Shown: positions 4,884-62,339 of the stretch, in pieces | Layout: every line of letters starts with the position of its first letter | How positions within the stretch are numbered: the stretch's first letter is position 1 | Virus record (IMG/VR): IMGVR_UViG_3300048881_000780 | Origin: a virus | Lineage: Duplodnaviria; Caudoviricetes | Length of the DNA: 64,000 nucleotides | Strand: one strand, 5' to 3' | Position numbers and translations under genes: made by a program | Notes under the pieces: generated by a model | The model's input: only the letters and a program-made list of their open reading frames with translations | What the model was told of the DNA's origin: nothing | Databases searched by the model: none

Positions 4884-5768
4884 ATGAATAGACCTTTTGA
4901 GTTCGTGATTGATAATAGGTTTACAAACGAAGATACTTTTGAACTATACTTATTTGAAGATATTAATTATGACTTCTCTATTGATTGGGGCGATGGATCT
5001 ATTTCCTCAATAAGTAATAATGACAAAAGCTGTTCCCACGTCTATAAAAATAAAAAAAAATATACTATTAAAATTTGGGGAAATGTAGAGGTCCTACATT
5101 TTTCTTGGAAATCTAAAAAACAAATAGTATACGTTTTAGACTTAGGTGATTGTAACTGGAAATCTTTAAATGCCATGTTTCTTTCATGTTCAAATCTTAT
5201 ATCATTTCGTGGAGGGGTTACCTCAAGTGTTGCGGATATGAGTCGAATGTTTTACAGATGTTCTTCATTACATGATTTAGATTTAAGTAGCTTTAATACT
5301 TCTAATGTGACCAATATAAATTCAATGTTCAGTGGTTGTACATCTCTAGAGAATTTAAATCTATTAAATTTTAATACATCAAATGTATTAACTATGAGTT
5401 TTGTTTTTAATAAATGTTCTTCTTTGTTGAATTTAGATTTAAGTAGTTTTAATACATCCAAGGTGACTAGCATGGATTTAATGTTTAATAGATGTACATC
5501 TTTAGATAATTTAAATCTATCTAGCTTCAATACTTTAAATGTTAGTGATATGACAGGTATGTTTAGACGTACTTTTTCAATAAAGTACCTAGATCTAACT
5601 AACTTTTGCTTTAACTCTCCAAAAATTCAAAACTTTTGTAAACTTGGCCCTAAAAAAATAATCGTCAAAAGACCATATAAGAAGAAGTATTTTAAGAAAG
5701 ATGAGAATGTATTCTCTAGTTCTATAGATATTTCTAGTAACTTATGGATAAATTCACTGACCGACTAA
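4884..5768 (+). CDS. BspA/DUF285-type LRR protein with PKD-like N-domain (~6 repeats)
   Basis: IDWGDG...H.Y...YTI.I.G; LDLSSFNTSNV..M..MF repeats; C-terminal NLWINSLTD. Confidence 0.85.
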   Translation: MNRPFEFVIDNRFTNEDTFELYLFEDINYDFSIDWGDGSISSISNNDKSCSHVYKNKKKYTIKIWGNVEVLHFSWKSKKQIVYVLDLGDCNWKSLNAMFLSCSNLISFRGGVTSSVADMSRMFYRCSSLHDLDLSSFNTSNVTNINSMFSGCTSLENLNLLNFNTSNVLTMSFVFNKCSSLLNLDLSSFNTSKVTSMDLMFNRCTSLDNLNLSSFNTLNVSDMTGMFRRTFSIKYLDLTNFCFNSPKIQNFCKLGPKKIIVKRPYKKKYFKKDENVFSSSIDISSNLWINSLTD

Positions 5769-5785
5769 AAAACCTATTTACACTC

Positions 5786-5802
5786 ATAACGCTTCGTGTT
5801 AA
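5786..5802. promoter_or_regulatory. 17-bp palindromic operator
   Basis: ATAACGCTTCGTGTTAA upstream of the AAA+ gene. Confidence 0.65.
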
Positions 5803-5822
5803 AATATTAACAAGGAGTTTCT

Positions 5823-6755
5823 ATGACAAAAAAAGCATCACCTAATAAGGTAAAAAGCACAAAAACATTTAAAATTGGAGAAGTTGAACTTCCTGTTAGA
5901 GAGGGGGATTCTACTTTTGTTCCAAAGATTAATGAGGCATTTTACTTCACAGAAGTATCGCATTGTATTGCTCAAGATATTGTTGAAAATAAGAGAGTTC
6001 TATTAACTGGTCACTGTGGAACAGGAAAGACCTCTAATCCACAGCAGATTGCTGCGAGGATTAATCAACCTGTTACTAGGATCAATTTAAATGGTCAGGC
6101 CACAATTGGTGACCTTGTAGGGTTTTGGTCTGTAAAAGGTGGTGAAACTGTTTGGATTGATGGTGCGCTCCCGATGGCAATGAAAGAGGGACACTGGTTA
6201 ATTTTAGATGAAATTGACTTCGCAGAACCAGCAATTCTCTCAATTTTAAATGGCGTACTTGAAAAAGATGCACCACTAGTTTTAAAAGAAAAAGGAACTG
6301 AGATTGTAAGACCTCATAAAGATTTTAGAATTTTTGCTACGGCCAATACCGTTGGTGTTATGCAAGAGTTTAGATTCCTATATCAGGGAGCAAATATCTT
6401 AAATGAGGCATTTATAGATAGATGGAGAATCTACTTTGTAGATTACCTAGAACCTGATCAGGAAGTAGATGTCCTGATTAAGACTCTAGGACTAGAAGAG
6501 AAGAGAGATAAGGTAGAAAAGGGTATTAGAAGTGCCGTAGAGGTCGCTAATATGGCCAGAAGAGCTTTTGAAGAAGAAACTCTATCATGTACCTTTTCTA
6601 TGCGAAAACTGACTGATTGGGTCGAATTAATGTTTAAATATAAGGATCCAATTAAGGCCTGTAATATGGCCATTAAAAGTAAAGTCAGTCGCGTTGATGG
6701 AGATGCCATTTCTTCGATCATTCAGCGTGTATTAGAAGATTGTGAACAAGATTAA
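5823..6755 (+). CDS. CbbQ/NirQ/CobS-type (MoxR clade) AAA+ ATPase
   Basis: Walker A GHCGTGKT, Walker B LILDE, FATAN sensor, AFIDRW. Confidence 0.9.
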   Translation: MTKKASPNKVKSTKTFKIGEVELPVREGDSTFVPKINEAFYFTEVSHCIAQDIVENKRVLLTGHCGTGKTSNPQQIAARINQPVTRINLNGQATIGDLVGFWSVKGGETVWIDGALPMAMKEGHWLILDEIDFAEPAILSILNGVLEKDAPLVLKEKGTEIVRPHKDFRIFATANTVGVMQEFRFLYQGANILNEAFIDRWRIYFVDYLEPDQEVDVLIKTLGLEEKRDKVEKGIRSAVEVANMARRAFEEETLSCTFSMRKLTDWVELMFKYKDPIKACNMAIKSKVSRVDGDAISSIIQRVLEDCEQD

Positions 6756-6790
6756 ATTTCCCCTCAGTGGGAAAGAAACCCCTTAAGTAG

Positions 6791-6820
6791 AGGGTCTGGC
6801 ATTACGTCAGGCCCTTTATT
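6791..6820 (+). terminator. Intrinsic terminator
   Basis: AGGGTCTGGC-ATTAC-GTCAGGCCCT followed by a T-rich tract. Confidence 0.6.
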
Positions 6821-6835
6821 TTAAAGAGTTTATAT

Positions 6836-8263
6836 ATGACAACTAGACCTTTCAAATTCAAAATTAAAGTAAATAGAGATGAGATATTCGCATTTAATTT
6901 ATCAAAAGAAGAAGTATCATATGACTTCACTATTGATTGGGGTGATGGGGTTAAAGGCTCTGTAAATAGTAAATCCTGCAAGTGTGAACATACCTATAAA
7001 AAGGGTGGCGAATTTACTATTACAATTAATGGTAATGTAGAGTCTATAAACTTCGAGAATGAGTCAAAAAGGCTGATTATAGAAGTTCTAGATTTAGGCG
7101 ATTGCAACTGGAAGAGTCTTTATTTTATGTTTGGCAATTGTTCTAACTTGACCTCATTTTCTGGTGGAATAACTAATCGAGTTGTAGATATGGCCTGTAT
7201 GTTTTACGAGGCTAGCTCTCTTAAGAGATTAGATTTATCAAGCTTTGACACCTCTAATACTCGGGATATGCAATCTATGTTTGCAGAAATCAGCTCTTTA
7301 GAGGAATTAGATATATCAAATTTTGAAACATCTAATGTGACGGATATGCGCTTTATGTTTTCAGGAGCTACCTCTCTTGAAAAATTAGATCTATCCAGTT
7401 TTGATACTTCTAAAGTAACAGATATGAGAAACATGTTTAATAGAGCTAACTCTCTAGTAAATTTAGATTTATCCAGCTTTGATACTTCTAATGTTAGAAA
7501 TATGAGCTATATGTTTAATGAATCTAGCTCACTTAAGGATTTAAATTTATCAAATTTTAATACATCTAAAGTCACGGATATGAGTCATATGTTCTATGGA
7601 TCGTGTTCATTTAAGAATTTGAATATATCAAATTTTAATACCTCTAAAGTTCAAGATATGAGTCATATGTTCTATGAAGTTAGCTCTCTAGTGGATCTAG
7701 ATTTATCCAGTTTTGACACTTCTAATGTTATAAACATGAGCTACATGTTTAGTGGAGCTACAGATTTAATAAATCTAGATATATCAAGTTTTGAAACCAC
7801 TGAAGTTGAATATATGAAATGTATGTTCCATGGAGCTAGCTCTATAGTAAGCTTAGATTTATCAAGTTTTAATACATCTAAAGTGACGAATATGAGTTAT
7901 ATGTTCTGCTACACTACCTCTTTAAGAAATTTAGATATAACTGGTTTTAGTACTTTTGAGGTAAAAGATATGAGCTTTATGTTTCATGGAGCAAGTTCTC
8001 TAGTGAATTTAGATTTATCAAATTTTGATACTTTTAATGTTTCTGACATGTCTAGTATGCTCGCTGGTGCGACATCTATTTCAAGTTTAGATTTAACAAA
8101 TTTTAACTTTGATGAAGTTGATGTGAATATGTTTGAGCTTAATGGTCCTCTAGAAATTATCGTTAAGAAGAAATTTAAAGAAAAATATTTTAAAGATAGC
8201 GAGAACGTAATATTTAAAACACTTAATTTAGTGTCCAACTCATGGATAGATGCTATTTCTTAA
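6836..8263 (+). CDS. BspA/DUF285-type LRR protein (~13 repeats of 26 aa)
   Basis: IDWGDG domain, many LDLSSFDTS.V.DM..MF repeats; C-terminal NSWIDAIS. Confidence 0.9.
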   Translation: MTTRPFKFKIKVNRDEIFAFNLSKEEVSYDFTIDWGDGVKGSVNSKSCKCEHTYKKGGEFTITINGNVESINFENESKRLIIEVLDLGDCNWKSLYFMFGNCSNLTSFSGGITNRVVDMACMFYEASSLKRLDLSSFDTSNTRDMQSMFAEISSLEELDISNFETSNVTDMRFMFSGATSLEKLDLSSFDTSKVTDMRNMFNRANSLVNLDLSSFDTSNVRNMSYMFNESSSLKDLNLSNFNTSKVTDMSHMFYGSCSFKNLNISNFNTSKVQDMSHMFYEVSSLVDLDLSSFDTSNVINMSYMFSGATDLINLDISSFETTEVEYMKCMFHGASSIVSLDLSSFNTSKVTNMSYMFCYTTSLRNLDITGFSTFEVKDMSFMFHGASSLVNLDLSNFDTFNVSDMSSMLAGATSISSLDLTNFNFDEVDVNMFELNGPLEIIVKKKFKEKYFKDSENVIFKTLNLVSNSWIDAIS

Positions 8264-8284
8264 TTTAACAACCAGGGAGATTAT

Positions 8285-8554
8285 GTGGAAAAGGAAATTC
8301 TAGTTTGGGAAGATAAGACTTATGATCAAATACCTCTTCAAGATAACCCAGCCACATGCTCTGTGGATGAATATGGAAGAATAGAATGTTTTATAATTTG
8401 TCTATCCGACTCGAAATTAGTGAAGCCAATGGTTGCACTCTATAAAGTTAATAATTTTAAAAGTGATAAGGTTACGGTCGTTAAGACTTTTCACGATTTC
8501 GAGTACGCTCTTTCTTGGGCAAAGGTCTTAAATTTTGAGGAGTCGAATAAGTAA
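8285..8554 (+). CDS. Hypothetical protein
   Basis: AGGGAG RBS, GTG start. Confidence 0.65.
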   Translation: MEKEILVWEDKTYDQIPLQDNPATCSVDEYGRIECFIICLSDSKLVKPMVALYKVNNFKSDKVTVVKTFHDFEYALSWAKVLNFEESNK

Positions 8555-9051
8555 TGGACTTTTTAAAGAAGCTTGAATTTTTAATTACTCAAAATAAAGA
8601 GAATTTACTCGATTCACATTTGAAGTATGGAGGAGTTCGAGTGACCTGTATTTCACTATCAAATGACAAGAGTTCAATAGAAGTGGAGCTAGATACTGGA
8701 TCACTAGCTTTTTCTCTAGAAGTTGATCACGAAAGTTGTTTTGAGTGTGGAAATAGTGAATTTCATGCAACTCAAGAATACCGAGTAAATATCATTGTTA
8801 ATCAGAACGGAGAGTTTTTAAGAAATAGATTTAATGATATGGAGCGATCTCTAGAAGATGCTGATGTACCCAAGGGTCCATTTAGTTGTACAAAGTGCAG
8901 TAAACAATATAGTGAAATAAAAGATGGCGCCATATTAGATAGGATGATTGAAATTACTGAAGAGAAGCTACGAGAACTAGGAGTAGGCCTCTTTAATAGT
9001 TATGATAAATTTGAAGAAGCGGTATTTAACCATGAACAAAGTAACAACTAA
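8554..9051 (+). CDS. Hypothetical protein with zinc ribbon
   Basis: CFEC...CTKC. Confidence 0.7.
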   Translation: MDFLKKLEFLITQNKENLLDSHLKYGGVRVTCISLSNDKSSIEVELDTGSLAFSLEVDHESCFECGNSEFHATQEYRVNIIVNQNGEFLRNRFNDMERSLEDADVPKGPFSCTKCSKQYSEIKDGAILDRMIEITEEKLRELGVGLFNSYDKFEEAVFNHEQSNN

Positions 9052-9691
9052 GCATACCTCTTTTGAGTTTGAAGTAAATTTATCTAGTGGTAATTTCGTT
9101 ATGTTTCATGTAGATCGAAACTTTGATTTCAAATTTAATGTTGATTGGGGTGATGGTAAGCGTAATTATTATCACCGTGAAAAAGACGCTAGTACTATAA
9201 GTCATAAGTATAGAAATAGTGGATGCTATAAAGTTAAAATATCTGGAGATATCTACAAACTTAGGTTCGGAGTAAGAACTAAGGGTTTTATAACTAGAGT
9301 TTTCAATTTAGGTGATTGTGAGTGGATTGATACATCTTCAATGTTTGAAAATTGTGAAAAACTAATGAGTTTCGCTGGTGGCGCAACTGATGAGGTGACT
9401 GATATGTCTGCAATGTTTGCTGGTTGCTTTAGTCTAGTATTATTAGACTTGAGTACTTTTAATACATCAAACGTAGTATCAATGGACAGGATGCTGGAAA
9501 AGGTTTCCTTTACTCCCCCATTAGATCTCACTTCATTTGATTTTTCTAAGTCATCATTAGATAGATTTCTATATCTTGGTCCAGGAAAAGTGTTTGTCAG
9601 TAAAGTAGTAAAAAATAAGTATTTTAAAGGAATTGATGCCGTTAAATATAAGACAGGCACCAATTCATGGATAGAATCATTAAGTAATTAA
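9032..9691 (+). CDS. Short BspA/DUF285-type LRR protein (~3 repeats)
   Basis: VDWGDG domain; C-terminal NSWIESLSN; start could be 9002. Confidence 0.8.
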   Translation: MNKVTTKHTSFEFEVNLSSGNFVMFHVDRNFDFKFNVDWGDGKRNYYHREKDASTISHKYRNSGCYKVKISGDIYKLRFGVRTKGFITRVFNLGDCEWIDTSSMFENCEKLMSFAGGATDEVTDMSAMFAGCFSLVLLDLSTFNTSNVVSMDRMLEKVSFTPPLDLTSFDFSKSSLDRFLYLGPGKVFVSKVVKNKYFKGIDAVKYKTGTNSWIESLSN

Positions 9692-9706
9692 TTTAGAACA
9701 CTCACA

Positions 9707-10225
9707 CTATTTCAGTGCTTTTAACCAGGCGTTTTCATTAGTTATTTCGATATTATTTTTTTCTTCAATGACTATCCCAAATAGATCATAGAATTCCTGA
9801 TCTGTTTGTTCATACCAACGATCTGACACAATATTTACCGTTTGATGAAATTCCTCTTCACTTGGATCTAGGTCTTTAAAATGCAACTCTTCTGGTAAAT
9901 ATTCACTGGCCCATTCAGATAGAGAATACTTATTGTCAATTCCATTGTGACAAAAGAATCCCGATTCCTCTCCGTCATCAGTATAACCAACGATATTTCC
10001 AATATATTCTAATTCCTCATTGATAGCGTTAATTACTCTATGAAAGTTTCTCCATTGGTCCATATCAATATGAGAAATTTCTGCTTTTATATCAAAGATA
10101 AGATCTTTATTTTTAGGTAATGGTGACTCTTTTCTAAACCAATTTGTTATAATCTCTCTTGCTCGATCATACGAATATTGGTCTTTAAATTGGATTTTTC
10201 CATTCCAGTAACTATATCTTGCCAT
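9707..10225 (-). CDS. Hypothetical protein, family B
   Basis: Paralog of 31592 and 11217 (W.G...F.D..S...A); C-terminal NAWLKALK. Confidence 0.75.
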   Translation of the reverse strand: MARYSYWNGKIQFKDQYSYDRAREIITNWFRKESPLPKNKDLIFDIKAEISHIDMDQWRNFHRVINAINEELEYIGNIVGYTDDGEESGFFCHNGIDNKYSLSEWASEYLPEELHFKDLDPSEEEFHQTVNIVSDRWYEQTDQEFYDLFGIVIEEKNNIEITNENAWLKALK

Positions 10226-10237: not shown

Positions 10238-11203
10238 TTAATTAAGAGAGTTCAGCCATGCATTTTCTTTTGATGCTACATACTCCCGATATTTTATATT
10301 TTCATATTCTTTGAAATATAATTTTTTATATCTTTTTTTTACAATTATTTCACTTGGACCATTTTCGCAGAAGGCCTCTAAGTTTCCATTATCAAATGAG
10401 AATCCGTATAAATCTAAACTAATTAAAGAGTTTGTACCTCTTAACATCTGGCGAAAATCCGCAACTCTGTCTGTAATGAAACTTGATAAATTTAAGCTCC
10501 CAAGAGCTCTAGTTTTGCAAAACATACTGTTCATATTGGTAACGCTGGAAGTATCAAATTTTGATAAATCTAAACTCGTTAGAGAGTGGGCATCATGAAA
10601 CATGTAACTCATATCTAAGACATTGGAAGTGTTGAAGCTAGAAAGATCTAAATCAACGAGTGAGTATGTATCACAAAACATGTATCTCATATTGGTGACA
10701 GATGAAGTGTTAAATGATGATAAATCTATTTTTGCAATCGAGTATATATCGCAAAACATATGGCTCATATTTGTAACAGACGACGTATCAAATGACGATA
10801 AATCTATTTTTACAAGTGATTTTGCATTAACGAACATATGACTCATGTCGGTAACATTTTTTGTTACCCCTCCCGCCAATGAGGTTAAGTTGTAACAACT
10901 AGAAAACATCTTATTAAAACTAGTCCAATTACAGTCACCTAAGTCTATGACTTCTAAAATACAAGGTCTTGACTCATTTTTAAAATTTATTGATCCGATA
11001 TCTCCCGTAATTTTTATAGTGTACTCTCCCTCTTTGTCATATAGATGGTTACAATTAAGGGAGCCTTTGTATCCTGTTTGACTGATATTTCCATCTCCCC
11101 ACTCAACAAAGAGGAATTTCTTATCATCACTTGAGTTTTCTATAGAAAAAGAGAAAGACTTTAGTTTATCTATTTTTATTTTAAATATAAATGGTTTTTT
11201 CAT
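10238..11203 (-). CDS. BspA/DUF285-type LRR protein (~7 repeats)
   Basis: VEWGDG domain, LRR repeats; C-terminal NAWLNSLN. Confidence 0.85.
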   Translation of the reverse strand: MKKPFIFKIKIDKLKSFSFSIENSSDDKKFLFVEWGDGNISQTGYKGSLNCNHLYDKEGEYTIKITGDIGSINFKNESRPCILEVIDLGDCNWTSFNKMFSSCYNLTSLAGGVTKNVTDMSHMFVNAKSLVKIDLSSFDTSSVTNMSHMFCDIYSIAKIDLSSFNTSSVTNMRYMFCDTYSLVDLDLSSFNTSNVLDMSYMFHDAHSLTSLDLSKFDTSSVTNMNSMFCKTRALGSLNLSSFITDRVADFRQMLRGTNSLISLDLYGFSFDNGNLEAFCENGPSEIIVKKRYKKLYFKEYENIKYREYVASKENAWLNSLN

Positions 11204-11216: not shown

Positions 11217-11741
11217 CTATTTTAGAGACTGAAGCCAAGAGTTAATTTTAGTATCCCTGTTTATTTCAAGGAAGTCTTTTTCATTTAGATTTAACCAGTG
11301 GTCAATAATTTCTTCTTTTATACTTTTAATTTCACTCTCGCTCTTTTTAAAACTCAGATTTAACCCCTTAGTTCTTCCCCATTTTTTAAGGTGACAAGTT
11401 TTGTATTGACCGTTAAAGATTATATTTCCTTGAAAAATATTCATCTCTTTTCTATTGCAAACGCTTTTTATAAAATGACTGTCACTTAGAGTGATTATTT
11501 TTTTCAGCGAGTTTTTAAATTTTTGAATATTTTTAAGAAAGTTTTTATCGCGACTATTTAGTTTTTTAATTTCCATTCCTAAATTAAATATATACTCATT
11601 ATTTAATTCCATTGTATGAATATTACTAACTAAAGATGAATCAAAATTATCCCTGAATATAGATACGGCCATATCTAATTTCTTTTTCGATATAAATCTC
11701 AGAATTCCTGTGTATACATACTTTGAATCTACATTATTCAT
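11217..11741 (-). CDS. Hypothetical protein, family B (divergent)
   Basis: YTGILRF...AVS; C-terminal NSWLQSLK. Confidence 0.7.
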   Translation of the reverse strand: MNNVDSKYVYTGILRFISKKKLDMAVSIFRDNFDSSLVSNIHTMELNNEYIFNLGMEIKKLNSRDKNFLKNIQKFKNSLKKIITLSDSHFIKSVCNRKEMNIFQGNIIFNGQYKTCHLKKWGRTKGLNLSFKKSESEIKSIKEEIIDHWLNLNEKDFLEINRDTKINSWLQSLK

Positions 11742-13300: not shown

Positions 13301-13566
13301 TGAAAGATTTAACTGATTACCAAAAGAGAGCTCTAGAAGAGCATAAAGAGTCCCTTACTGAACTTGGGTATACCCATCGAGGTGAAGAGGTTAAGGACGT
13401 CATTTTCGAGGTTCTAGATACCCTTGAGAGAAGATATAAGTTTGATCTCGAGATAAATAACGACTTAGAAGATGAAGTTGAATCAATAATTCATCAATAT
13501 ACTTTAGAGAAGTTAATTGAACTTGAAGAATTCAAGAAAGTGCTCAAATCGAGGACTCTTAAATGA
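13300..13566 (+). CDS. Hypothetical protein
   Basis: Coupled ORF. Confidence 0.7.
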   Translation: MKDLTDYQKRALEEHKESLTELGYTHRGEEVKDVIFEVLDTLERRYKFDLEINNDLEDEVESIIHQYTLEKLIELEEFKKVLKSRTLK

Positions 13567-13997
13567 AAACGAGATATCCAAGTATAGATAAAATTTTAAA
13601 AGAAATTAAGAAGCCTACTTTGATCGCAATAAATAAAGATCCCAATATCTCTAACGAAGAAATTTTAGACGATTTCTATGAAGTAGTAAGTGATCCAATG
13701 TGTGAAATTAATGAACTCTGTGATTTAGAGCTTATTATTGAGCGCAAGAACTCTGAGCCTCGTGTTTTAGTTAGGATTGTAGATGAACAACTAGAAATTC
13801 AGCTACTCGATAGTTGCGATCGCTGTGCTGGTACAGGCCAGAGTATGGAGATGGTGTGCTATGGGGATATGCCGATTGAAAAATATGGAGACTGTCCCGA
13901 TTGTGAGTCTACTGGATTTATCTATCCCTACAAAAAAGAGCTAAAACCTAAGGATGAATTACACCCTAATTTATGGATCAGATCTCTACTGTCCTAG
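13563..13997 (+). CDS. DnaJ-type zinc-finger protein
   Basis: CDRCAGTG...CPDCESTG; C-terminal NLWIRSLLS. Confidence 0.7.
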   Translation: MKTRYPSIDKILKEIKKPTLIAINKDPNISNEEILDDFYEVVSDPMCEINELCDLELIIERKNSEPRVLVRIVDEQLEIQLLDSCDRCAGTGQSMEMVCYGDMPIEKYGDCPDCESTGFIYPYKKELKPKDELHPNLWIRSLLS

Positions 13998-23973: not shown

Positions 23974-24540
23974 CTAAATCAGGGACTTGATCCAAGGGTT
24001 ATCAGGTCCCACTTTAAAAGGGCCCGAACTCTCTCTATTTTCAAAACCAAAGATATTATCCAATTCGCTCCATTTGATATTTTTAATAACTTCACTAACC
24101 ATGACCATTTTATCTCTCATACCTACTGACATTAGAAAGTCTTCTTTTGATATAGTGAAATCTAGTTTTTTCTGTTTCTTGCACTCATTTGGTGATAATT
24201 TTCTATAGAAGTAAATTAAGTTCGTTTCTCTGTAAAAGGCAATAACTTGTGCACTCGATAGCCTGTTAAATGCAAATAAATCTGCCAATACTCGGATGAG
24301 ATTATCACATGACTCAAATATTTTATCTGAAGAATCCATTAGCCCAATTTTTTCATATGCATCCGAATGGATTATCTTACAAACTTCTGCAAGATCAATT
24401 ATCATTTTATCAGTATCTACCTGATAAGAAATTCCAAGTTCTCTATTTAAATAATTTCGATCATCAAAAAGATCGTTAAGATTGGAATATTTAAAATGTC
24501 CTTTTATATGTAAAATACTCACTATAGCTCCCCTTTTCAT
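23974..24540 (-). CDS. Hypothetical protein carrying the shared C-terminal motif
   Basis: Ends NPWIKSLI. Confidence 0.7.
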   Translation of the reverse strand: MKRGAIVSILHIKGHFKYSNLNDLFDDRNYLNRELGISYQVDTDKMIIDLAEVCKIIHSDAYEKIGLMDSSDKIFESCDNLIRVLADLFAFNRLSSAQVIAFYRETNLIYFYRKLSPNECKKQKKLDFTISKEDFLMSVGMRDKMVMVSEVIKNIKWSELDNIFGFENRESSGPFKVGPDNPWIKSLI

Positions 24541-29586: not shown

Positions 29587-29721
29587 ATATTACGATTGTT
29601 TATATTACGATTGTTTATATTACGATTGTTTATATTACGATTGTTTATATTACGATTGTTTATATTACGATTGTTTATATTACGATTGTTTATATTACGA
29701 TTGTTTATATTACGATTGTTT
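29587..29721. repeat. Perfect tandem repeat, 9 x 15 bp (ATATTACGATTGTTT)
   Basis: Direct reading. Confidence 0.95.
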
Positions 29722-30021
29722 AATTAGTTTGAATTTCTTAAAACTTAAAACATCGGAAATTGCTTCATCAAGATCATACTCTTCATTTAAAATCTCCAAT
29801 AGCCTTGATTCTGTGTAATTATTACCAAAAGATCCAGAGCACCACTCTCTAACTTCTCTTTCTGTAATAAGATTAAGTTGTTTATCTTCATCATCGGAAT
29901 ACTTATTAAAGCAAGAAGAGCAGTAATCTTTCTTGTCTTCCCTGTTTTCATAGTAATCAACGCTATCAACAATGTGAGAACCACAAATGTCACATAAGAG
30001 CTTGTCTTCTTCGTTATACAT
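29710..30021 (-). CDS. Zinc-binding hypothetical protein
   Basis: CDICG...YCSSC; the stop lies inside the tandem repeat. Confidence 0.7.
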   Translation of the reverse strand: MYNEEDKLLCDICGSHIVDSVDYYENREDKKDYCSSCFNKYSDDEDKQLNLITEREVREWCSGSFGNNYTESRLLEILNEEYDLDEAISDVLSFKKFKLIKQS

Positions 30022-31591: not shown

Positions 31592-32122
31592 ATGAGTCAC
31601 TATACAAATTGGAGAGGATATTTAGAGTTTGAAGATGAGAAGTCTTTAAAGCAAGCGGTCTCAAAAATTGAGAAATGGAATGAAAGCAAGGATAAATTAA
31701 AATATAGAGTAGAAAATGGATTAAGTGTCGTTATTACTCCTGTTTTATCATTATTTAGTGATGACTCTAATATTGTCCCATGTGAAGATCATGAATCATT
31801 AATTAGGAATCTAATTACTCTAACTAATAATCACCTACTTATTGGAACCAGTGAAGATGCAGAGTTTGAAGGATATCTCTACTACAATAGAAAGAGTTTT
31901 GTTATTGATTTGGCAGACTGGGGAGAGTCTAAGGATTTTGAAAATTTAAATCTAAGTAAGTATGCTCTGGATGATCCCAATTATGCATCGACAGAAATTG
32001 CCATAAAGAAGGCCTGGTATAGTGAGAAGGTAACTAAGATTTTATCTTATGCGGGGATTAATGTACTTAAAGATTTTAAATCTAATGGGAAGAATTCTTG
32101 GATCAACTCTCTTGAGAAATAA
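31592..32122 (+). CDS. Hypothetical protein, family B
   Basis: Paralog of 9707; C-terminal NSWINSLEK. Confidence 0.75.
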   Translation: MSHYTNWRGYLEFEDEKSLKQAVSKIEKWNESKDKLKYRVENGLSVVITPVLSLFSDDSNIVPCEDHESLIRNLITLTNNHLLIGTSEDAEFEGYLYYNRKSFVIDLADWGESKDFENLNLSKYALDDPNYASTEIAIKKAWYSEKVTKILSYAGINVLKDFKSNGKNSWINSLEK

Positions 32123-38053: not shown

Positions 38054-38851
38054 TTAAGATAGATCCCTCTTTTTAAGCTCTTGAATAATCTCTCTATTTT
38101 GATCAATTATTATATTATTTTGCTTAACCACATAGTCGTTATTGTCCATAGTAAAAACATCAGTAATTGAGGCAACTAAAATTGCAACTCCAAATATTCC
38201 AAGTGTTAAAAGCTGAAAAGAGAACCACACAAGAGTTAAAAATGGATAGTTTGAACTCTCCATAATCTTTTCTGTTAACTCAAATCCCTCACCCATGATG
38301 AGCTTCTGAAGGGCCAAGATACTACTGGTCATATCTGAAAACTCTTCAATGTCACTATAATAAGTATTATTAATTAAACCAAATATTAAAAAGAGAAATG
38401 AGATTATTAGAATAATACCCATTGAAGTTTTTATAGCTTTGTATAGAGACTTCATTATGTGATCAAGATTTGGGATAAAACTAAGTATCCTAAGGAGCCT
38501 TATTAATCTAAATAATATAACAAAAGTTGGGCTATTTAATTCCTTTAAAAAGAAAGTAAATATTATAAAAGTCACTAGAGATACAACAACGATTGTAAAA
38601 TCAAATTTATTCCAGTGATCATCCCAGAACTTAGAAAACCCGTCTCTAAAACTACAACTGCAAGTCATATATTGCTTAACACTAAAAAAAATCTCTAGGC
38701 TAAATAGTCCAATAAAGAATGTCTCTAGAGTTATTAATTGTGAGTTATTTATGACCTGAAATCCATTTAAAATGACCAGAATACTATTAATGATAATTAA
38801 CCATATTATGGCAACTTCATTTAATAGAATCTTCTCCAATTTCTTTATCAT
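38054..38851 (-). CDS. 6-TM voltage-gated-type ion channel (bacterial NaV-like)
   Basis: WNKFDF..V; S4 FRLIRLLRILSFIP; S5-pore-S6; C-terminal coiled coil. Confidence 0.8.
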   Translation of the reverse strand: MIKKLEKILLNEVAIIWLIIINSILVILNGFQVINNSQLITLETFFIGLFSLEIFFSVKQYMTCSCSFRDGFSKFWDDHWNKFDFTIVVVSLVTFIIFTFFLKELNSPTFVILFRLIRLLRILSFIPNLDHIMKSLYKAIKTSMGIILIISFLFLIFGLINNTYYSDIEEFSDMTSSILALQKLIMGEGFELTEKIMESSNYPFLTLVWFSFQLLTLGIFGVAILVASITDVFTMDNNDYVVKQNNIIIDQNREIIQELKKRDLS

Positions 38852-53680: not shown

Positions 53681-54223
53681 ATGAGAAAGGTAGTGTCGGG
53701 ATTGGCGTCCTTAAATAAATGGCTAAATACTAATAACTTAAAGATAGATCTTTTTATTATAGGTAGCTACGCTCTCCATCTACAAGGTGTACAAATAGAG
53801 AGGGAAACTGATATCGATCCAGTCAACGCCATAAATGATGAAGATATCGAAAATGAAATCCATAAAATATCACAAGAATTGGGTTATCAGTGGTTTGATC
53901 TAGGAGCGTCAAGTATTATCCTTCCGGATGGGTACGAAGATAGACTTGAACTAAAGGAAACTCTCACAAATATAAATATTTACACTCTAAGTTTAAAAGA
54001 CTTAACCATCCTTAAAGTCGCGGCCTACTTTCATCGAAAAGAACAGGGAATCATTAGAGACTTAGAAGACCTTATTCATATTGACCCATCAATGACAGAT
54101 GTAAATCAGGCCTTTGATTTTATTTTGGATAAGCATGGGGATAATCTCCCCGATCGATTCAAACAAAATCTAGCCGAAGACTTGGAGGAATTAAGAGATG
54201 AACTCTCTAACTACTTTAAATAA
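53681..54223 (+). CDS. DUF6036-like nucleotidyltransferase (putative toxin)
   Basis: IIGSYAL.L....ERETDID; LP.GYEDRL; DL.ILKV; RDLEDL. Confidence 0.7.
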   Translation: MRKVVSGLASLNKWLNTNNLKIDLFIIGSYALHLQGVQIERETDIDPVNAINDEDIENEIHKISQELGYQWFDLGASSIILPDGYEDRLELKETLTNINIYTLSLKDLTILKVAAYFHRKEQGIIRDLEDLIHIDPSMTDVNQAFDFILDKHGDNLPDRFKQNLAEDLEELRDELSNYFK

Positions 54224-54896
54224 CCAGGAGGATGTTGCTTGGCACTTAAGCTCCCTTGGAATGCTGATTTCTACAACTGTTGAGAGAGATAGAAATTATA
54301 TTGATTTAGAAATGTTTCTCATTAAGTCCACTAAGTTTCTGTTTAACGATCTTAGATTATCAAGATCTATGGAGTATTGGTGTTTGGCCTATGGGAGGTT
54401 TCTATCGTTTAAGAAACTAAACCAATATCTATCTAATATTGACTCCCGTCATTATGATAGCGCCGTACTGGGAGCACTCTTGTCGATAGCTGACTCAAAA
54501 TTTCCAGAAAAAGGAAAATTCTCTAAGCTGTCAAAATTTTGTTCTTCAAATGAAGTGCCTGTGAAGTTATCTAAATTATTTTCAAGTAAGAAGAAGTCTG
54601 ACCCAAGGTGGCTTAAGTATGGAGTCATTGCTCCCATATTTATTGCAAATGAGATAGAGAATAATCTCTGTTATAAATCATACCTAGTAAAAAATGTTCC
54701 TGAAATCTATTATAGAATAATTGGACTCCCAAGTGCTATCGCAGATATTAAGTCAATTCTAAGATTCAACAAAGAGATCTCTATATATAAGCTGGCGAAA
54801 ATGGCCAACTTAACTTATGCTACAGCATTTAATCACATGAAGAATTACGAACTAGTGGATATTAAACCTAATAATAAAGAGTTCATTAGAGTGTAG
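54198..54896 (+). CDS. Partner protein with C-terminal HTH (putative antitoxin)
   Basis: ADI..IL...ISIYKLAKMANLTYATA; paralog of 59632. Confidence 0.6.
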   Translation: MNSLTTLNNQEDVAWHLSSLGMLISTTVERDRNYIDLEMFLIKSTKFLFNDLRLSRSMEYWCLAYGRFLSFKKLNQYLSNIDSRHYDSAVLGALLSIADSKFPEKGKFSKLSKFCSSNEVPVKLSKLFSSKKKSDPRWLKYGVIAPIFIANEIENNLCYKSYLVKNVPEIYYRIIGLPSAIADIKSILRFNKEISIYKLAKMANLTYATAFNHMKNYELVDIKPNNKEFIRV

Positions 54897-57129: not shown

Positions 57130-57146
57130 CTAACACGTTGTGTCAT
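57130..57146. promoter_or_regulatory. Degenerate 17-bp operator
   Basis: CTAACACGTTGTGTCAT. Confidence 0.55.
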
Positions 57147-57189
57147 AAAAATAAATAAGAATTTATAAATAAAAAACTTCTTTACAATA

Positions 57190-57206
57190 TTGACGCATCA
57201 TGTTAA
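57190..57206. promoter_or_regulatory. 17-bp palindromic operator
   Basis: TTGACGCATCATGTTAA. Confidence 0.8.
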
Positions 57207-57237
57207 TATTTATGTACACAACACAGGGAGACTATAT

Positions 57238-57462
57238 ATGAAAAAGACATTAATCATTATTTCACTATTTCTTAATTGTAATAATATTATTGCTCAAGAA
57301 GTCGTATCAAATAACTGTAGCGTTATAACTGTTAAAAAGGTTCCATATAAAGAAGTTTTAAAAAGGAGAAAATTTATTCCATCGGAATATATTCAATTTG
57401 AAAATAGCCATCAAGAAGTAAATTACTTCGTCTTTGAGTCAAAGAATAAGCCACTATATTAA
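57238..57462 (+). CDS. Small exported protein
   Basis: MKKTLIIISLFL; GGGAG RBS. Confidence 0.6.
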   Translation: MKKTLIIISLFLNCNNIIAQEVVSNNCSVITVKKVPYKEVLKRRKFIPSEYIQFENSHQEVNYFVFESKNKPLY

Positions 57463-57476
57463 TTTAGGAGAAGTTT

Positions 57477-57782
57477 ATGATTGTTGAATTATCAAATGCT
57501 GTTAAATCTATTTGTGAGAAAATTGAACACTTTATATCACCAATAAAAAGTTTTGGAACCTGTCATGCTGTATTTGTTGGCGATAGTTATTTTTTTGAAA
57601 CAATGAAGGTAGTCGATGGCCTTGGCAATTGCGGAAATATCTCATTAGATAATAAAGGACTATACGTCTACCGTGATAGCGATCAAATATCAATTAATGA
57701 AAAAAATGGAGATAGGGAATATCTAAGACCCCACGTACAAAAGCTTTATAAAGACTTTAAAGAGTCATCAAAGCTACATTAG
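57477..57782 (+). CDS. Hypothetical protein
   Basis: AGGAG RBS. Confidence 0.65.
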   Translation: MIVELSNAVKSICEKIEHFISPIKSFGTCHAVFVGDSYFFETMKVVDGLGNCGNISLDNKGLYVYRDSDQISINEKNGDREYLRPHVQKLYKDFKESSKLH

Positions 57783-57791
57783 GATTATTTT

Positions 57792-58019
57792 GTGCAAAGA
57801 TCTAAAATATCTCTAGAAGATGCCATTGACCATTTCTTTACTAGCTCTGAGATCATTAAACTTCTAAGAGACTATCGTGATATTAGAGCTGGTAATGGCC
57901 CTCATACGTCACCTTTTTATCAACTGGTGACACATCTTGAGGAAGCTGGATTTGGTAATCAAAGTAGAAATTTAGCTGAGTCTCTTGTGATTGACTACGT
58001 ATTTAATAGATATATCTAG
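57792..58019 (+). CDS. Hypothetical protein
   Basis: AGGA RBS. Confidence 0.6.
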   Translation: MQRSKISLEDAIDHFFTSSEIIKLLRDYRDIRAGNGPHTSPFYQLVTHLEEAGFGNQSRNLAESLVIDYVFNRYI

Positions 58020-58065
58020 AGATAATTTTTACGATAAGTAGTTTAAATATAGAATTGGAGAAATT

Positions 58066-58620
58066 ATGGGTTGGTGGTCAGAAGTTATTATAGGAGGAGA
58101 TCGTCCTCTAGATTGTAGAGCGATTCTATTAGAGAAAATGGGTGTTCCTCACTACGAAGAGAATTCATCAGATAAAGTTAAAAAGGCGCTAAATAGCAGT
58201 TTAGATTCTATTGATCATATGTGCTATGAACTTTTAGAGAGAGGGTATGATTCTATCTCTTACCAAGTGATTGGTGTTATGATTATGGAGTCAGGTGCCA
58301 ATTTTCCAGAAAGTTTAAAATCAAAAGTTATTAAAATGACGAAAATTGATGAATGGTATAGAGAAGGTGACGAGAAAAGAGTTTTCTTTATTGAAGAATT
58401 TATAAAACAAATTGAAGAGTATGACGGAACTGCTGTAGAAGTGGCCACAGAATCTCTTTATGAAGTCTTTTTAAAAAAGAGAACAGAAAAACAAGATGAA
58501 TTCATTCGCTCTCGCACTTACATTAATGGCGCTGAGTTTAAAGACTATAAAGCTGGATTAACTGACCCAGAAGTACTATTAGATGCCGATGATTTAATCG
58601 AGTTTCAAAAAATCAAGTAG
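58066..58620 (+). CDS. Hypothetical protein
   Basis: MGWW...I.GGD.PLD N-terminus. Confidence 0.7.
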   Translation: MGWWSEVIIGGDRPLDCRAILLEKMGVPHYEENSSDKVKKALNSSLDSIDHMCYELLERGYDSISYQVIGVMIMESGANFPESLKSKVIKMTKIDEWYREGDEKRVFFIEEFIKQIEEYDGTAVEVATESLYEVFLKKRTEKQDEFIRSRTYINGAEFKDYKAGLTDPEVLLDADDLIEFQKIK

Positions 58621-58717
58621 GTTAAAGACGAATCCAGTATATGAAATCCCCGAGGGAATAAAAGAGATATTTGATGAAAGAGATGCCCTTTATAAAATAA
58701 TAGACTATAGCTTTGAG

Positions 58718-59041
58718 ATGGATAATATTGAAGCTATGGACTGCTTCTTAAGTGAATCCCAAATCCATGAGTCTCATGTACTACTAAATGATGGTACTCA
58801 GGTCTCTCTATTTTTACCTGGGTATCGTTACTATATTGTCATAGATTCCAGTGGCCTTGGTGATACATTCTCTCATCAATTTGAAGTTACTCGCATTCCT
58901 CTAACTGGCTTAATAAAACAGGCCAGAGATAAGAATCAATCCATTGGAGCATCAAGCATCTCAAGTTCTCTAGAGCAAGAAATTGAGTCGCTTAGTGGTG
59001 ACCAAGTCAGAGAAATATTTAATTTTGTCTTCTTTAATTAA
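58718..59041 (+). CDS. Hypothetical protein
   Basis: ORF. Confidence 0.55.
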   Translation: MDNIEAMDCFLSESQIHESHVLLNDGTQVSLFLPGYRYYIVIDSSGLGDTFSHQFEVTRIPLTGLIKQARDKNQSIGASSISSSLEQEIESLSGDQVREIFNFVFFN

Positions 59042-59101
59042 CAACTTAGCTCTTTAGTTGTATTTTCTTACCATAATAGTATAATACTATAGAGGTAAAT
59101 A

Positions 59102-59629
59102 ATGGATATTAAAAGAGCTCTTGAAGCATTAGATTTTTACTTACTTAACGATGAGTCTAGTCAAAATTATCACTTAGTTATTGGTGGTGGCGCCGCCATG
59201 AATCTATTAAATATCTCTCATCGAGAAACGGAAGATATCGATGTCTTTACACCAAGAATCCTTGGATCTCTTAAGGAAGCAACTAAAGCTGTAGCAAGTA
59301 AATTATCAATTGAAGACGACTGGTTAAATAATGGCATCAACTTCTTTAAGGAAGCTCTTTTGCCAGGTTGGTCAGATAGGTTGGAAACTGTTTACACAGG
59401 TGAAAAAATTAAAGTATCCTCTGTATCTCGAATAGATTTAATTTCTCTTAAATTCATTTCTGAAATTCATCGTGAATCTGATATTATGGATATTAAAAAA
59501 CTGTGCCCCACTATTGAAGAGCTAACTCAAGTGGCCAATTATGTTAAAAAGTACCAATTACATTTAGTAAATGATCGAATATGGCACAAGGAAGTTGATC
59601 ATCTAGTTTCTAGAATCACCAAGGAATAG
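59102..59629 (+). CDS. DUF6036-like nucleotidyltransferase (putative toxin)
   Basis: IGGGAAM.L....RETEDIDV; WLNN; LP GW.DR; DLI.LK; D..DI. Confidence 0.8.
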   Translation: MDIKRALEALDFYLLNDESSQNYHLVIGGGAAMNLLNISHRETEDIDVFTPRILGSLKEATKAVASKLSIEDDWLNNGINFFKEALLPGWSDRLETVYTGEKIKVSSVSRIDLISLKFISEIHRESDIMDIKKLCPTIEELTQVANYVKKYQLHLVNDRIWHKEVDHLVSRITKE

Positions 59630-59631
59630 TT

Positions 59632-60327
59632 GTGAACGAAAGATCTCTAGAAAAGAAGTGGCGAACACTTGGTATCTCTTATCGCTTTAGAGATGAAAGT
59701 AGTGATATTTTCTACTTACCTGAGGATATATTAATTGCTAGTTGTAATTATGATTCCATCAAAGAAAATAAAACTTTCATATCTCATCTACTTATGTGGG
59801 TTGCTGATTATAATAAGTTAATCCATGTGGATCTAATAAAGAAGAAATTCCAAAATCTAACTCCTCTTGGGGTAGTTATTTTATGGAGAGTAATAAAAGA
59901 AATTCAAGATCATGAGTTCGATTCTAGGTGGAATGTTATTTTAAAGATGTGTGAACAATCAATGAATGATAATGACTTATCTAACTTGTCTTTAAGTAGA
60001 GATTCTAAACGAGGTTTTAAAGGGGAAGATTCTCACTTATCAACTTTGGGAGTCTATTCAATACCTCTTACCCCTACTCATAAGAAGAAAATTTATAAGA
60101 GAGAGAGGGTTTTAGGGAGTAATATCTGGCTAAGAAATAGAGTCTTGTTTGGTACTAATTTAAGGGCAGATATCTTCACTATAATTGAAAATGAGATCTG
60201 CTCAAGTCCCTATCAGTGCTCTAAATATCTAGATATATCTCTTAAGACCGCCTACCAACACTGGAATAGCATTAAAGAATTTCAATCTCTAGAAATTAAT
60301 AAAGATTACGAAAATATCGAATTTTAA
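59632..60327 (+). CDS. Partner protein with C-terminal HTH (putative antitoxin)
   Basis: NR.LFG.NLRADI......SPYQ.SK.L.IS..TA. Confidence 0.65.
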   Translation: MNERSLEKKWRTLGISYRFRDESSDIFYLPEDILIASCNYDSIKENKTFISHLLMWVADYNKLIHVDLIKKKFQNLTPLGVVILWRVIKEIQDHEFDSRWNVILKMCEQSMNDNDLSNLSLSRDSKRGFKGEDSHLSTLGVYSIPLTPTHKKKIYKRERVLGSNIWLRNRVLFGTNLRADIFTIIENEICSSPYQCSKYLDISLKTAYQHWNSIKEFQSLEINKDYENIEF

Positions 60328-60395
60328 ATGTTCATATATGTTGCATTAACCCCCGATATCTACGATAAATGATCATATATGATCATTAAATAATT

Positions 60396-60486
60396 TATAT
60401 CTTCAATATATTGTATATTAAATAACATCTATATCTTCAATATATTGTATATTAAATAACATCTGTATCTTCAATATATTGTATAT
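60396..60486. repeat. 34-bp tandem repeat, about 2.7 copies
   Basis: TATATCTTCAATATATTGTATATTAAATAACATC. Confidence 0.85.
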
Positions 60487-60511
60487 ATCCCCTCATTAAA
60501 TAACTTAAATA

Positions 60512-60540
60512 TTGACACATCATGTTAAAAAGATTAAGAT
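60512..60540 (+). promoter_or_regulatory. Promoter with embedded operator
   Basis: TTGACA-17-TAAGAT; TTGACACATCATGTTAA. Confidence 0.85.
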
Positions 60541-60562
60541 AGAGGTAACACCGGGGATAATT

Positions 60563-61039
60563 ATGACAGATTTACTAGATTCGATATATTTCTATTTAAC
60601 ACTAAGGGAGCAAGGTTCTGTTGTTCATGCTGTTGCGTTTGGGTTTCTCTTGACTGGAATAGGGGCCTCGATAATATCTTATAACCATGATTACGATGGG
60701 GTACATGGGAGAACTTTAACTTTCATCACGACTATACTTACTGGTTTAATTGTACTGACTCTAGTATCTGGACTTCACAAACCAGAGGCTCCTTATTGTC
60801 TAAGTAAAAAGATTGATCTTTTAAACAATATTGTTTCAAATGAGTCAAGAAATACGATCATAGATTTCTCTAAGTATTCAGCTGACTACCCTCACTATGA
60901 CCTAAAAACTAAAAAGTTCTCACGTCTAAATTATAAAAAGTTAGAGTTAGTAAAGTGTTCAGAAAGCGAGAAGTTTTTAATTGGTGAAATTTCTAGAAAA
61001 TTTGAGAGTTCTCATTTTTACGATGGGAAACCTATATGA
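60563..61039 (+). CDS. Membrane protein (paralog of 44832)
   Basis: Two TM helices; shared C-terminal domain; ATG 60563. Confidence 0.7.
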   Translation: MTDLLDSIYFYLTLREQGSVVHAVAFGFLLTGIGASIISYNHDYDGVHGRTLTFITTILTGLIVLTLVSGLHKPEAPYCLSKKIDLLNNIVSNESRNTIIDFSKYSADYPHYDLKTKKFSRLNYKKLELVKCSESEKFLIGEISRKFESSHFYDGKPI

Positions 61040-61611
61040 AATATAAAGTATCCGAAGTACCTCAGTATATTAGTGTTGAATATAATACCGAAATTGGTTT
61101 TGGTCACCTCAGAGAGTGGCTAGAAGCTCTAGATCAAGAAACTAAAGAAAACTTTGGCAGTAATTACTGTCTAGATCTTATCCCCGACTTCCAAAGAGGA
61201 CATGTTTGGTCACTGGATCAAAAGGTGGCCTTTGTCGAGCACGTTTTAATGGGTGGTCGATCGGGACTGGAAATTCTATTTAATGCAACCTTTTACGCTA
61301 AATCTAGTGATGGAATCCCAATGGATTCATACTGCGTAGATGGTCTACAGAGAATAAGTGCAGTTCTAGATTTTTTAGACGAGAAGTTTAAAGTATTTCC
61401 TCATTTAAACAATGGTGGATTGTTAGCATCTGACTTTAGAGATCAAAGAAGACTTAAGCAATTTAGATTTAAAGTTCAAGTTGGATCATTTCAAACTAGA
61501 GCAGAAATTCTAGAGTGGTACCTCCAAGTTAATAGTGGTGGAACCCCACACACTAAAGAAGAGCTTGAAAGAGTTAGAAAGCTTCTTAAAAATGAATCCT
61601 CGAGAAAGTAG
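61036..61611 (+). CDS. DUF262 (ParB-like) domain protein
   Basis: PDFQRGHVW, VDGLQR, NSGGT.H. Confidence 0.85.
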   Translation: MKYKVSEVPQYISVEYNTEIGFGHLREWLEALDQETKENFGSNYCLDLIPDFQRGHVWSLDQKVAFVEHVLMGGRSGLEILFNATFYAKSSDGIPMDSYCVDGLQRISAVLDFLDEKFKVFPHLNNGGLLASDFRDQRRLKQFRFKVQVGSFQTRAEILEWYLQVNSGGTPHTKEELERVRKLLKNESSRK

Positions 61612-62339
61612 TGATTCAGAAGAGGCCATTAATTATTCACATTAACTTTAGAATGGATAGAGATTATGAACCTCTTATTTTACCAAATATAGAAAAAGGG
61701 TCGTGGATTCAATTTACAGACTTAGAAAAAGATAGAATTTATCTAAAGGAAAATAGCACAGAAGATCTCCCCTATACAACTGATGGCCTATATAAAATTA
61801 AGACCCATGGAAATATCCCAATTGCAAGACTAATTAAAGACTGTAAACAACTTAGAAAATCGATTTTCAAGATAGAAAGTGGTGATCACCACTTCTATGG
61901 CAATTCAATCATTAAAGGGTGCTCTAATCTTAAAGAATTTATCTCCACTGGTTCTTGCCAAGTTTATAATGCTGGCAGTATGTTTGAAAATTGCACCTCC
62001 TTAGGTATTGTAGATATACAAACTATGTCATTTTTTGAATGTCACTTTATGAGTTATATGTTTTACAATTGTAAAAAATTAAAAGAGATAAAGTTCCCCA
62101 CTAACTTTGGTCGACAAATTGGAAATCTTCACTCTATGTTTTATGGGTGTAATTCTCTAAAAGATATTGATATGGAAGGCTTTAGACCAACTCTTTCAAA
62201 TTGTAACATCGAAGATATCAGAAAGTACTGCCCTGCTAGAATAAGAATTAATAAAACCCTAAGAAAGTGGTCCCCTTTTAAAGATAACCTGGATTTCTAC
62301 ACTCAATCTGTAAATGATTGGATTCAATCGATATCGTAG
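61611..62339 (+). CDS. Divergent BspA-like LRR protein
   Basis: SMFENCTSL, YMFYNCKKL, SMFYGCNSL; C-terminal NDWIQSIS. Confidence 0.75.
   Translation: MIQKRPLIIHINFRMDRDYEPLILPNIEKGSWIQFTDLEKDRIYLKENSTEDLPYTTDGLYKIKTHGNIPIARLIKDCKQLRKSIFKIESGDHHFYGNSIIKGCSNLKEFISTGSCQVYNAGSMFENCTSLGIVDIQTMSFFECHFMSYMFYNCKKLKEIKFPTNFGRQIGNLHSMFYGCNSLKDIDMEGFRPTLSNCNIEDIRKYCPARIRINKTLRKWSPFKDNLDFYTQSVNDWIQSIS

Follow-up and report, generated by a model that had tools for sequence, protein, structure and literature searches.

What could lead proteins of unrelated families, all encoded by one element, to end in the same few residues? This question is raised by a 64,000-nt stretch of DNA (IMG/VR record IMGVR_UViG_3300048881_000780; referred to below as "the window"), part of an element that, to judge from its genes, is plasmid-like; all of the proteins considered here are encoded on its 361,129-bp contig, which is of deep-sea vent origin. 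A sequence-only reading of the window had listed ten proteins that share the C-terminal tag N-x-W-[IL]-x-[SA]-[LI] and had proposed that the tag is a short helix used as a shared address. We read ~89 kb of the element in total, namely, the window and ~25 kb of the right flank, the latter via a 44.6-kb Logan contig (L002-L004). The results show that the tag is real and is conserved as protein sequence, and we think that it is probably an address or docking label with one reader.

We searched the six-frame translation of the window with the pattern N.W[IL].[SA][LI] and obtained 10 matches, every one of them (10/10) 1 to 2 residues ahead of the stop of a long open reading frame (ORF). On the basis of the amino acid composition of 115 likely genes, 0.05 matches would be expected by chance anywhere and 0.0006 at C-termini, and shuffling the proteome 2000 times yielded 0.053 matches on average and never more than 2. 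No internal match was seen under the strict pattern; a relaxed pattern added a single internal one, located in a spurious antisense ORF inside a leucine-rich repeat (LRR) gene. With 10 matches, all terminal, against 0.05 expected and at most 2 in shuffled controls, the occurrence of the tag is real and far above chance. The right flank held 6 further tagged ORFs, again all terminal, bringing the total to 16 tagged genes in the sequence read. The ten C-termini listed earlier thus read exactly as claimed, and their strictly terminal position extends to the flank copies. Most of the ORF coordinates also stood as listed, the exceptions being two starts that matching Logan gene calls place at 9032 (not 9002) and 61653 (not 61611). 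The tagged genes are as follows.

4884..5768, plus strand: LRR protein 1, 294 aa, ending NLWINSLTD (tag codons 5739-5759); Pfam DUF285, E = 5e-30.
6836..8263, plus strand: LRR protein 2, 475 aa, ~13 repeats, ending NSWIDAIS (tag codons 8237-8257); DUF285, E = 7e-79.
9002..9691, plus strand: LRR protein 3, likely start 9032 (219 aa; gene call on L001), ending NSWIESLSN (tag codons 9662-9682); DUF285, E = 2e-8.
9707..10225, minus strand: family B protein, 172 aa, ending NAWLKALK (tag codons 9713-9733); no Pfam or PHROG match.
10238..11203, minus strand: LRR protein 4, 321 aa, ending NAWLNSLN (tag codons 10244-10264); DUF285, E = 2e-38.
11217..11741, minus strand: family B protein, 174 aa, ending NSWLQSLK (tag codons 11223-11243); family B profile, E = 4.6e-5.
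13563..13997, plus strand: Zn-finger protein, 144 aa, with CxxCxGxG-type motifs, ending NLWIRSLLS (tag codons 13968-13988); DnaJ_CXXCXGXG, E = 1.7e-4, below the Pfam cutoff.
23974..24540, minus strand: orphan protein, 188 aa, ending NPWIKSLI (tag codons 23980-24000); no Pfam, PHROG, or Atlas relative.
31592..32122, plus strand: family B protein, 176 aa, ending NSWINSLEK (tag codons 32093-32113); assigned by profile membership.
61611..62339, plus strand: divergent LRR protein 5, likely start 61653 (228 aa; gene call), ending NDWIQSIS (tag codons 62313-62333).
Right flank, L002/L004: three DUF285 LRR carriers, ending NSWIKSLDD, NTWLKSLS, and NNWLKAIS.
Right flank, L002/L004: three small-protein carriers, ending NSWLESLK, NSWLKALDI, and NLWLESLK.

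All ten window carriers have Leu or Ile at position -2 or -3 from the C-terminus. Their final residues are D, S, N, K, N, K, S, I, K, and S, and the spacing between the tag and the C-terminus is not constant.

The LRR carriers form a family of 8 members, composed of an N-terminal beta-sandwich (a weak PKD match), 26-residue DUF285 repeats in variable number, and a Lys-rich C-cap. Four of those in the window exceeded the gathering score of PF03382 (E = 7e-79 to 2e-8), and LRR protein 5 gave weak matches only (LRR_5, E = 1.6e-6; DUF285, E = 7e-5). LRR protein 1 has a PKD-like N-domain followed by DUF285 repeats and lacks an N-terminal hydrophobic segment, and the gene for LRR protein 2 (6836..8263) contains 78-bp tandem repeats. 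The AlphaFold2 (AF2) model of LRR protein 4 (pLDDT 94) showed the beta-sandwich at residues 1 to 87, an LRR solenoid, and the C-cap extending to residue ~306, and its best Foldseek matches were TpLRR and a Bacteroides ovatus LRR protein (BspA-type). The flank also encodes a truncated LRR paralogue of 131 aa (L004, 12561-12956), which keeps the PKD-like domain and the first repeat, has lost the remaining repeats and the tag, and looks like a decayed copy.

Family B has 6 members, whose bodies are 21 to 24% identical and which were joined through profile iteration alone. The AF2 model of the protein encoded at 9707 (pLDDT 69) contains an alpha/beta domain, and searches for a matching fold (Foldseek PDB, VIA-wide, and Atlas) found nothing above noise (best Z, 3.8). 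In one flank operon (L004, 2632-5130), tagged family B genes alternate with 4 to 5 untagged paralogues that share the N-terminal sequence L-Y-P-G-[YF]-x-K-G and that could encode partner proteins of family B. The Zn-finger protein (13563) and the orphan (23974) showed no similarity to any other carrier; the orphan had no match in Atlas and fell outside the family B profile (E = 0.32). By sequence, the carriers are not all full-length homologs (full-length homology of all of them would have spoken against the sequence-only reading), and the earlier division into five LRR proteins, three family B proteins, one Zn-finger protein, and one orphan was right at the sequence level (Pfam and profile comparisons). 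The count of at least four unrelated families likewise holds by sequence. However, since paralogy accounts for the inheritance of the tag inside each of the two larger families (LRR and family B), these data support about four independent acquisitions and not ten.

We then compared codons and aligned tails among 15 tags (the ten from the window and five complete flank copies). Third (synonymous) positions of the fixed tag residues had a pairwise identity of 0.38, and the 30-nt flanks on either side of the tag had an identity of 0.29, which is background at 32% G+C. Copies also switched between codon families, with Ser encoded by both TCN and AGT and Leu encoded by both CTN and TTA. No common repeat, terminator, or recombination site was found downstream of the tags. 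When the last 30 residues were aligned, Asn and Trp alone proved invariant, and the [IL], [SA], and [LI] classes were kept throughout; upstream of the tag lies a polar linker that could not be aligned between carriers. Because identity at synonymous positions and in the flanks was at background and codon families were switched, we conclude that the tag is conserved through selection at the protein level, as had been suggested from the differing DNA of the copies.

Is the tag a usual part of these protein families or an addition to them? It was missing from all 119 of the best DUF285 relatives outside the element in a search of 5.8 billion proteins, and a profile of the LRR C-cap plus the tag retrieved only this element's own proteins. 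An exhaustive HMMER search with family B against 1.84 billion representatives found just three outside relatives, all untagged; they align over the core and end where the core ends, with neither linker nor tag, and no tag was found at their loci, which are mobile-element-like. Within the element, by contrast, all 15 tails compared have the Asn and the Trp, even though the bodies of family B have diverged to the low identities given above. With all of these outside relatives lacking it, the tag behaves, in such comparisons, as a modular add-on to its carrier families, and the LRR family and family B would each have gained the tail in this element's lineage. This agrees with the original view of the tag as family independent. 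The N-termini of the LRR carriers differ from those of their relatives as well. About half of the outside DUF285 relatives have a hydrophobic N-terminus, as expected for a surface-protein family: by a rough heuristic, the Kyte-Doolittle maximum over a 12-residue window in the first 35 residues, 59 of 113 reached at least 2.0, compared to values of 0.1 to 1.3 in the eight LRR carriers. No N-terminal hydrophobic segment or membrane helix was present in any of 15 carriers, so that the claimed lack of an obvious signal peptide was upheld. As far as these comparisons indicate, the LRR carriers are members of a normally Sec-exported surface family that have here lost the Sec signal and gained the tag.

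Structure prediction located a helix at the tag in two families. In the model of LRR protein 4, the tail (pLDDT ~46 to 50) contained a four-residue helix at residues 315 to 318, exactly at the tag, and in the family B model (9707), residues 155 to 172 had a pLDDT of <50 and a helix at residues 166 to 171 that coincides with the tag. The low-pLDDT tails and the polar, unalignable stretch upstream bear out the description of the tag as sitting on a polar, flexible linker. Asn would plausibly serve as the helix N-cap, followed by about two helix turns that carry, in order after Asn, a small residue, Trp, Ile/Leu, an always-polar residue, Ser/Ala, and Leu/Ile; Trp, Ile/Leu, and Leu/Ile would then lie on one helix face with the small Ser/Ala beside them. 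The invariant Asn and Trp, the strict Ser/Ala, the floppy linker, and the strictly terminal position together suggest docking into a groove of one protein. A single reader protein, encoded elsewhere on the element, would bind the helix, and we infer that all carriers would in this way be handled as one group. The proposal of a short helix used as a shared address was therefore supported in part, as to the predicted helix and the modular C-terminal tag.

As the reader, we tentatively favor the substrate receptor (a coupling ATPase or adaptor) of a putative type IV secretion system (T4SS) of the element, an assignment that we regard as possible rather than probable. In that event, the putative system would send the variable LRR binders and the small proteins out to the cell surface or pilus or inject them, with DNA, into recipient or target cells. 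The fuller scenario, in which dozens of signal-less proteins are marked by the tag, read by a dedicated receptor of this putative T4SS, and delivered to the surface or to recipients with DNA, is somewhat more doubtful. We favor a T4SS reader because the carriers resemble proteins that are exported or injected and have no other export signal, because the element is plasmid-like, because a hydrophobic residue lies at position -2 or -3, and because there are T4SS precedents. In addition, the genes for a TopB-like topoisomerase and a CobT-like von Willebrand factor A (vWA) protein match large conjugative plasmids: relatives of the CobT-like vWA protein were found on 1982 plasmids (983 typed as conjugative, many of them IncC-like) and 58 phages, and one Salmonella plasmid that matches it also matches the TopB-like topoisomerase.

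Several precedents resemble the tag in part. In Legionella, LvgA, an adaptor of the Dot/Icm T4SS coupling complex, reads a helical FxxxLxxxK motif near the C-terminus of unrelated effectors, and a hydrophobic residue near the C-terminus matters in the RalF-type Dot/Icm signal (PMC7251119). The tag is like the former in being a short helix near the C-terminus of unrelated proteins and like the latter in placing Leu/Ile 2 to 3 residues from the C-terminus. The Legionella motifs, however, are loose, ~2-fold enriched in effectors, and at no fixed distance from the end, whereas the tag is sharp, always terminal, and different in sequence. CagH, CagI, and CagL share a C-terminal hexapeptide that is encoded by divergent DNA; no other protein of the proteome has it, and both function and pilus assembly depend on it (PMC3164655). 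As with the tag, unrelated proteins of one element, in the Cag case one that bears a T4SS, have the same short ending despite divergent DNA; the differences are that there are 16 or more carriers here compared to three, that the sequence is another one, and that the Cag motif is exactly the last six residues. CagH, CagI, and CagL are also Sec-exported machine parts, whereas the tag carriers have no signal peptide. The XVIPCD of Xanthomonas T4SS effectors is reported to be bound by VirD4 (PMC8740702); it is likewise a conserved C-terminal module on otherwise unrelated proteins, and one that is read by the coupling protein. Co-transfer of proteins has been reported for the F-plasmid T4SS (PMC8406263). 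In size, the 7-residue tag contrasts with the XVIPCD, which is a folded domain of ~120 residues.

A number of observations weigh against a T4SS reader. The T4SS of this element is putative, and its genes would lie outside the ~89 kb read. We know of no T4SS signal with a consensus this sharp. The mean net charge is 0.07 for the tag and 0.47 for the last 20 residues, unlike VirB/D4-type signals, which have a net positive or Arg-rich stretch in the C-terminal 20 to 30 residues; several of the tails are in fact acidic. With respect to Dot/Icm-type features, which are loose and nondiagnostic, the ten carriers have Leu/Ile at position -2 or -3, but the tag has no E-block and no FxxxLxxxK. About 30 substrates would be many for a conjugation system. 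The operator-like sequence of tagged genes (described below) is shared with DNA metabolism genes and not specifically with transfer genes. Finally, the searches brought up no second element with which co-occurrence could be compared. A profile of the 15 tails gave tag-only matches of 3 to 13 bits, too weak to discriminate in 5.8 billion proteins, and no second element carrying the tag was found. There was no match for window positions 1 to 25000 among phages (megablast), for family B among plasmids (tblastn), for family B, the CobT-like protein, or the AAA+ protein in IMG/VR scans, for an exact 45-mer in IMG/VR and JGI metagenome contigs, or for the topoisomerase protein among species genomes, and no similar stretch was found in other indexed genomes. 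The same DNA did occur, at identical sequence, in two metagenome studies of hydrothermal vents (Logan assemblies); the second vent run contains the same element as identical low-depth fragments and so allows no evolutionary comparison.

The gene neighborhood suggests a different reader. Two untagged genes, listed here as context and not shown to belong to the tagged set, lie among the tagged ones.

2939-4690, plus strand: CobT-like vWA protein (Pfam).
5823-6755, plus strand: AAA_5/CbbQ-type MoxR ATPase (Pfam), interleaved with tagged genes.

In MoxR-vWA pairs, the vWA protein holds an unstructured or terminal client peptide and the AAA+ partner remodels the client, and such peptide capture followed by MoxR action has been proposed as a general mechanism of these pairs (PMC7159879). 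The tail could accordingly dock on this pair, with the CobT-like vWA protein capturing the peptide at or near its metal ion-dependent adhesion site (MIDAS) and AAA_5 remodeling, assembling, or releasing the carrier. Six of the ten tagged window genes are interleaved with the pair in one cluster, which is the likeness to MoxR-vWA systems, and the free C-terminal carboxylate 1 to 2 residues past the motif could be a metal ligand. On the other hand, the other ten tagged genes (four in the window and six in the flank) lie 2 to 80 kb away from the pair, the tag has no invariant acidic residue, and its distance to the end varies. The pair is, moreover, common as a backbone module, to judge from the relatives of its vWA protein on ~2000 plasmids and 58 phages, where no such tag is known, and CobS/CobT-like plasmid or phage pairs have no described shared client tag. 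A predicted complex of vWA, AAA_5, Mg, and the tail scored 0.01, which speaks neither for nor against binding. We consider docking on this pair unlikely. To our knowledge, no function is known for CobT-vWA/AAA_5 pairs on plasmids and phages.

The carriers might instead be parked on the inner face of the cytoplasmic membrane by an amphipathic targeting helix, as is the case with the C-terminal helices of FtsA and MinD. The tag is terminal and helical, follows a linker, and has Trp and two aliphatic residues on one face, and it shows a local likeness (S-W-I-K-x-L and N-S-W-L) to the C-terminal helix of Escherichia coli FtsA, GSWIKRLNSWLRKEF (PMC9098913). It has, however, 7 to 9 residues compared to 15 in FtsA, a mean net charge of ~0 compared to +3 in the FtsA tail (with 5 of 15 tails net acidic), and a hydrophobic moment of 0.51, which does not exceed the 0.54 of ordinary window C-termini; it thus falls short of the ~10- to 15-residue amphipathic helix with basic flanks that characterizes the FtsA/MinD type. 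Membrane-targeting helices usually conserve amphipathicity and not sequence, whereas the conservation here is residue specific, the invariant Asn and Trp and the strict Ser/Ala suggesting contact with a particular protein. Membrane targeting therefore appears no more likely than docking on the vWA/MoxR pair and, if anything, slightly less so.

An adaptor-read degron seems improbable. Under that explanation, the tag would recruit carriers to a putative Clp-type unfoldase/protease of the element and thereby give them a controlled, short lifetime. Terminal degrons shared by unrelated proteins are established (the ssrA tag being an example), and the tag is C-terminal, exposed, and partly hydrophobic and sits on a flexible linker. 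But its last 1 to 2 residues are variable and often polar or acidic, unlike those of degrons that are read via a nonpolar C-terminal carboxylate end, and the ten carriers lack the ssrA-like/ClpX C-motif (nonpolar last residues plus a free carboxylate, e.g., LAA-COOH). It would also be hard to explain why ~30 proteins, including a diversifying LRR repertoire, should be built for destruction, and there is no Clp gene in the part of the element read.

More improbable still is a cargo-loading signal for a protein shell, which would be an encapsulin-like or other compartment or, should the element in fact be a huge phage, a virion. Encapsulins do load cargo via C-terminal peptides on unrelated families, and there are phage-type genes on the element; however, the backbone genes match conjugative plasmids, and a PHROG scan of 20 window and flank proteins revealed no capsid, portal, or terminase and gave weak coiled-coil matches only. 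Lastly, the tag might have no function of its own and be a structural ending peculiar to certain families that paralogy or recombination has spread. This reading has very little left in its favor and is close to refuted. Although 5 of the 10 window carriers are LRR paralogues and 3 of the 10 are family B paralogues, two more proteins, unrelated to these, end in the tag as well; the LRR and family B relatives outside the element lack it; AF2 models do not show it packed against the domains; and it is far better conserved than the bodies, with no conserved DNA around it.

Other known signals were considered as well. The beta-clamp-binding motif, PIP box, SSB tail, LIR/AIM motif, CaaX box, and PTS1 were set aside on sequence pattern alone. 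Sortase- and exosortase-type sorting signals were set aside as requiring a membrane segment, and the C-terminal domain of the type IX secretion system and type I secretion signals were set aside as much longer.

A docking or address peptide, with the T4SS receptor as its tentative reader, would have practical consequences. That a terminal peptide can serve as an address is known in principle; for N-x-W-[IL]-x-[SA]-[LI] itself, no published description was found in the literature. Sorting signals of T4SSs and of giant mobile elements are notoriously fuzzy, which has blocked cargo prediction. Here, the label is short and sharp; four or more unrelated families have it and their relatives elsewhere do not, and the cargo set of the element thereby becomes readable from sequence. 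Whatever the reader is, the carriers are a ready list of proteins that the element handles as one functional group, including a variable set of LRR proteins in which the tag has taken the place of the Sec signal, and the reader could be fished out with a seven-residue peptide. Should it prove to be a T4SS receptor, T4SS cargo would for the first time have a consensus-type tag that can be predicted from sequence, and a large co-transferred "establishment proteome" would come to light.

The rest of the window places the tagged genes in their setting. The window has ~32% G+C, no tRNAs, and the standard genetic code: the 113 complete window ORFs end in TAA (75), TAG (32), or TGA (6), several of the last in ATGA stop/start overlaps, where TGA is a real stop, and genetic code 4 was rejected on these grounds. 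DNA metabolism genes in the window encode the TopB-like protein (topoisomerase III-like), an NAD-dependent ligase, a C5 methylase, and an N6/N4 methylase. Besides the vWA and AAA_5/CbbQ genes, there are genes for a histidine kinase, an ion channel, and nucleotidyltransferase modules, as well as a PAPS-reductase-like gene (a second such gene lies in the flank); the remainder are mostly dark matter.

A palindromic, 15-bp operator-like sequence, TAACRY-N3-RYGTTA, occurred at 20 window sites (with at most 1 mismatch) compared to 1.7 expected. The sites are mostly intergenic and lie upstream of operons that include those for the topoisomerase, ligase, and methylase and three that bear tags, namely, those of the Zn-finger protein (13563), a family B protein (31592), and LRR protein 5 (61611). 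From this distribution, the sequence looks like the mark of an element-wide regulon.

1527, 5787, 26283, 29503, 36399, 50478, and 62368: examples of TAACRY-N3-RYGTTA sites.

Several repeats were also observed. Just upstream of the start of the C5 methylase gene, at 29587-29726, the 15-bp unit ATATTACGATTGTTT is repeated 9.4 times at 99% identity; this array is iteron-like and is possibly an origin or a binding array. A 34-bp intergenic tandem repeat (3.1 copies; 60385-60486) lies upstream of the operon at 60512, and a 177-bp in-frame repeat (2.7 copies; 893-1378) lies inside a large ORF that runs off the left edge of the window. A two-gene module consisting of a DUF6036/AbiEii-type nucleotidyltransferase and a partner of ~225 aa is present three times (53681-54896, 59102-60327, and L004 13234-14395). 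The ion channel (38054-38851) is of the voltage-gated type (Ion_trans, E = 1e-17), and its gene adjoins that for a PHROG 20046 protein with a paralogue in the flank.

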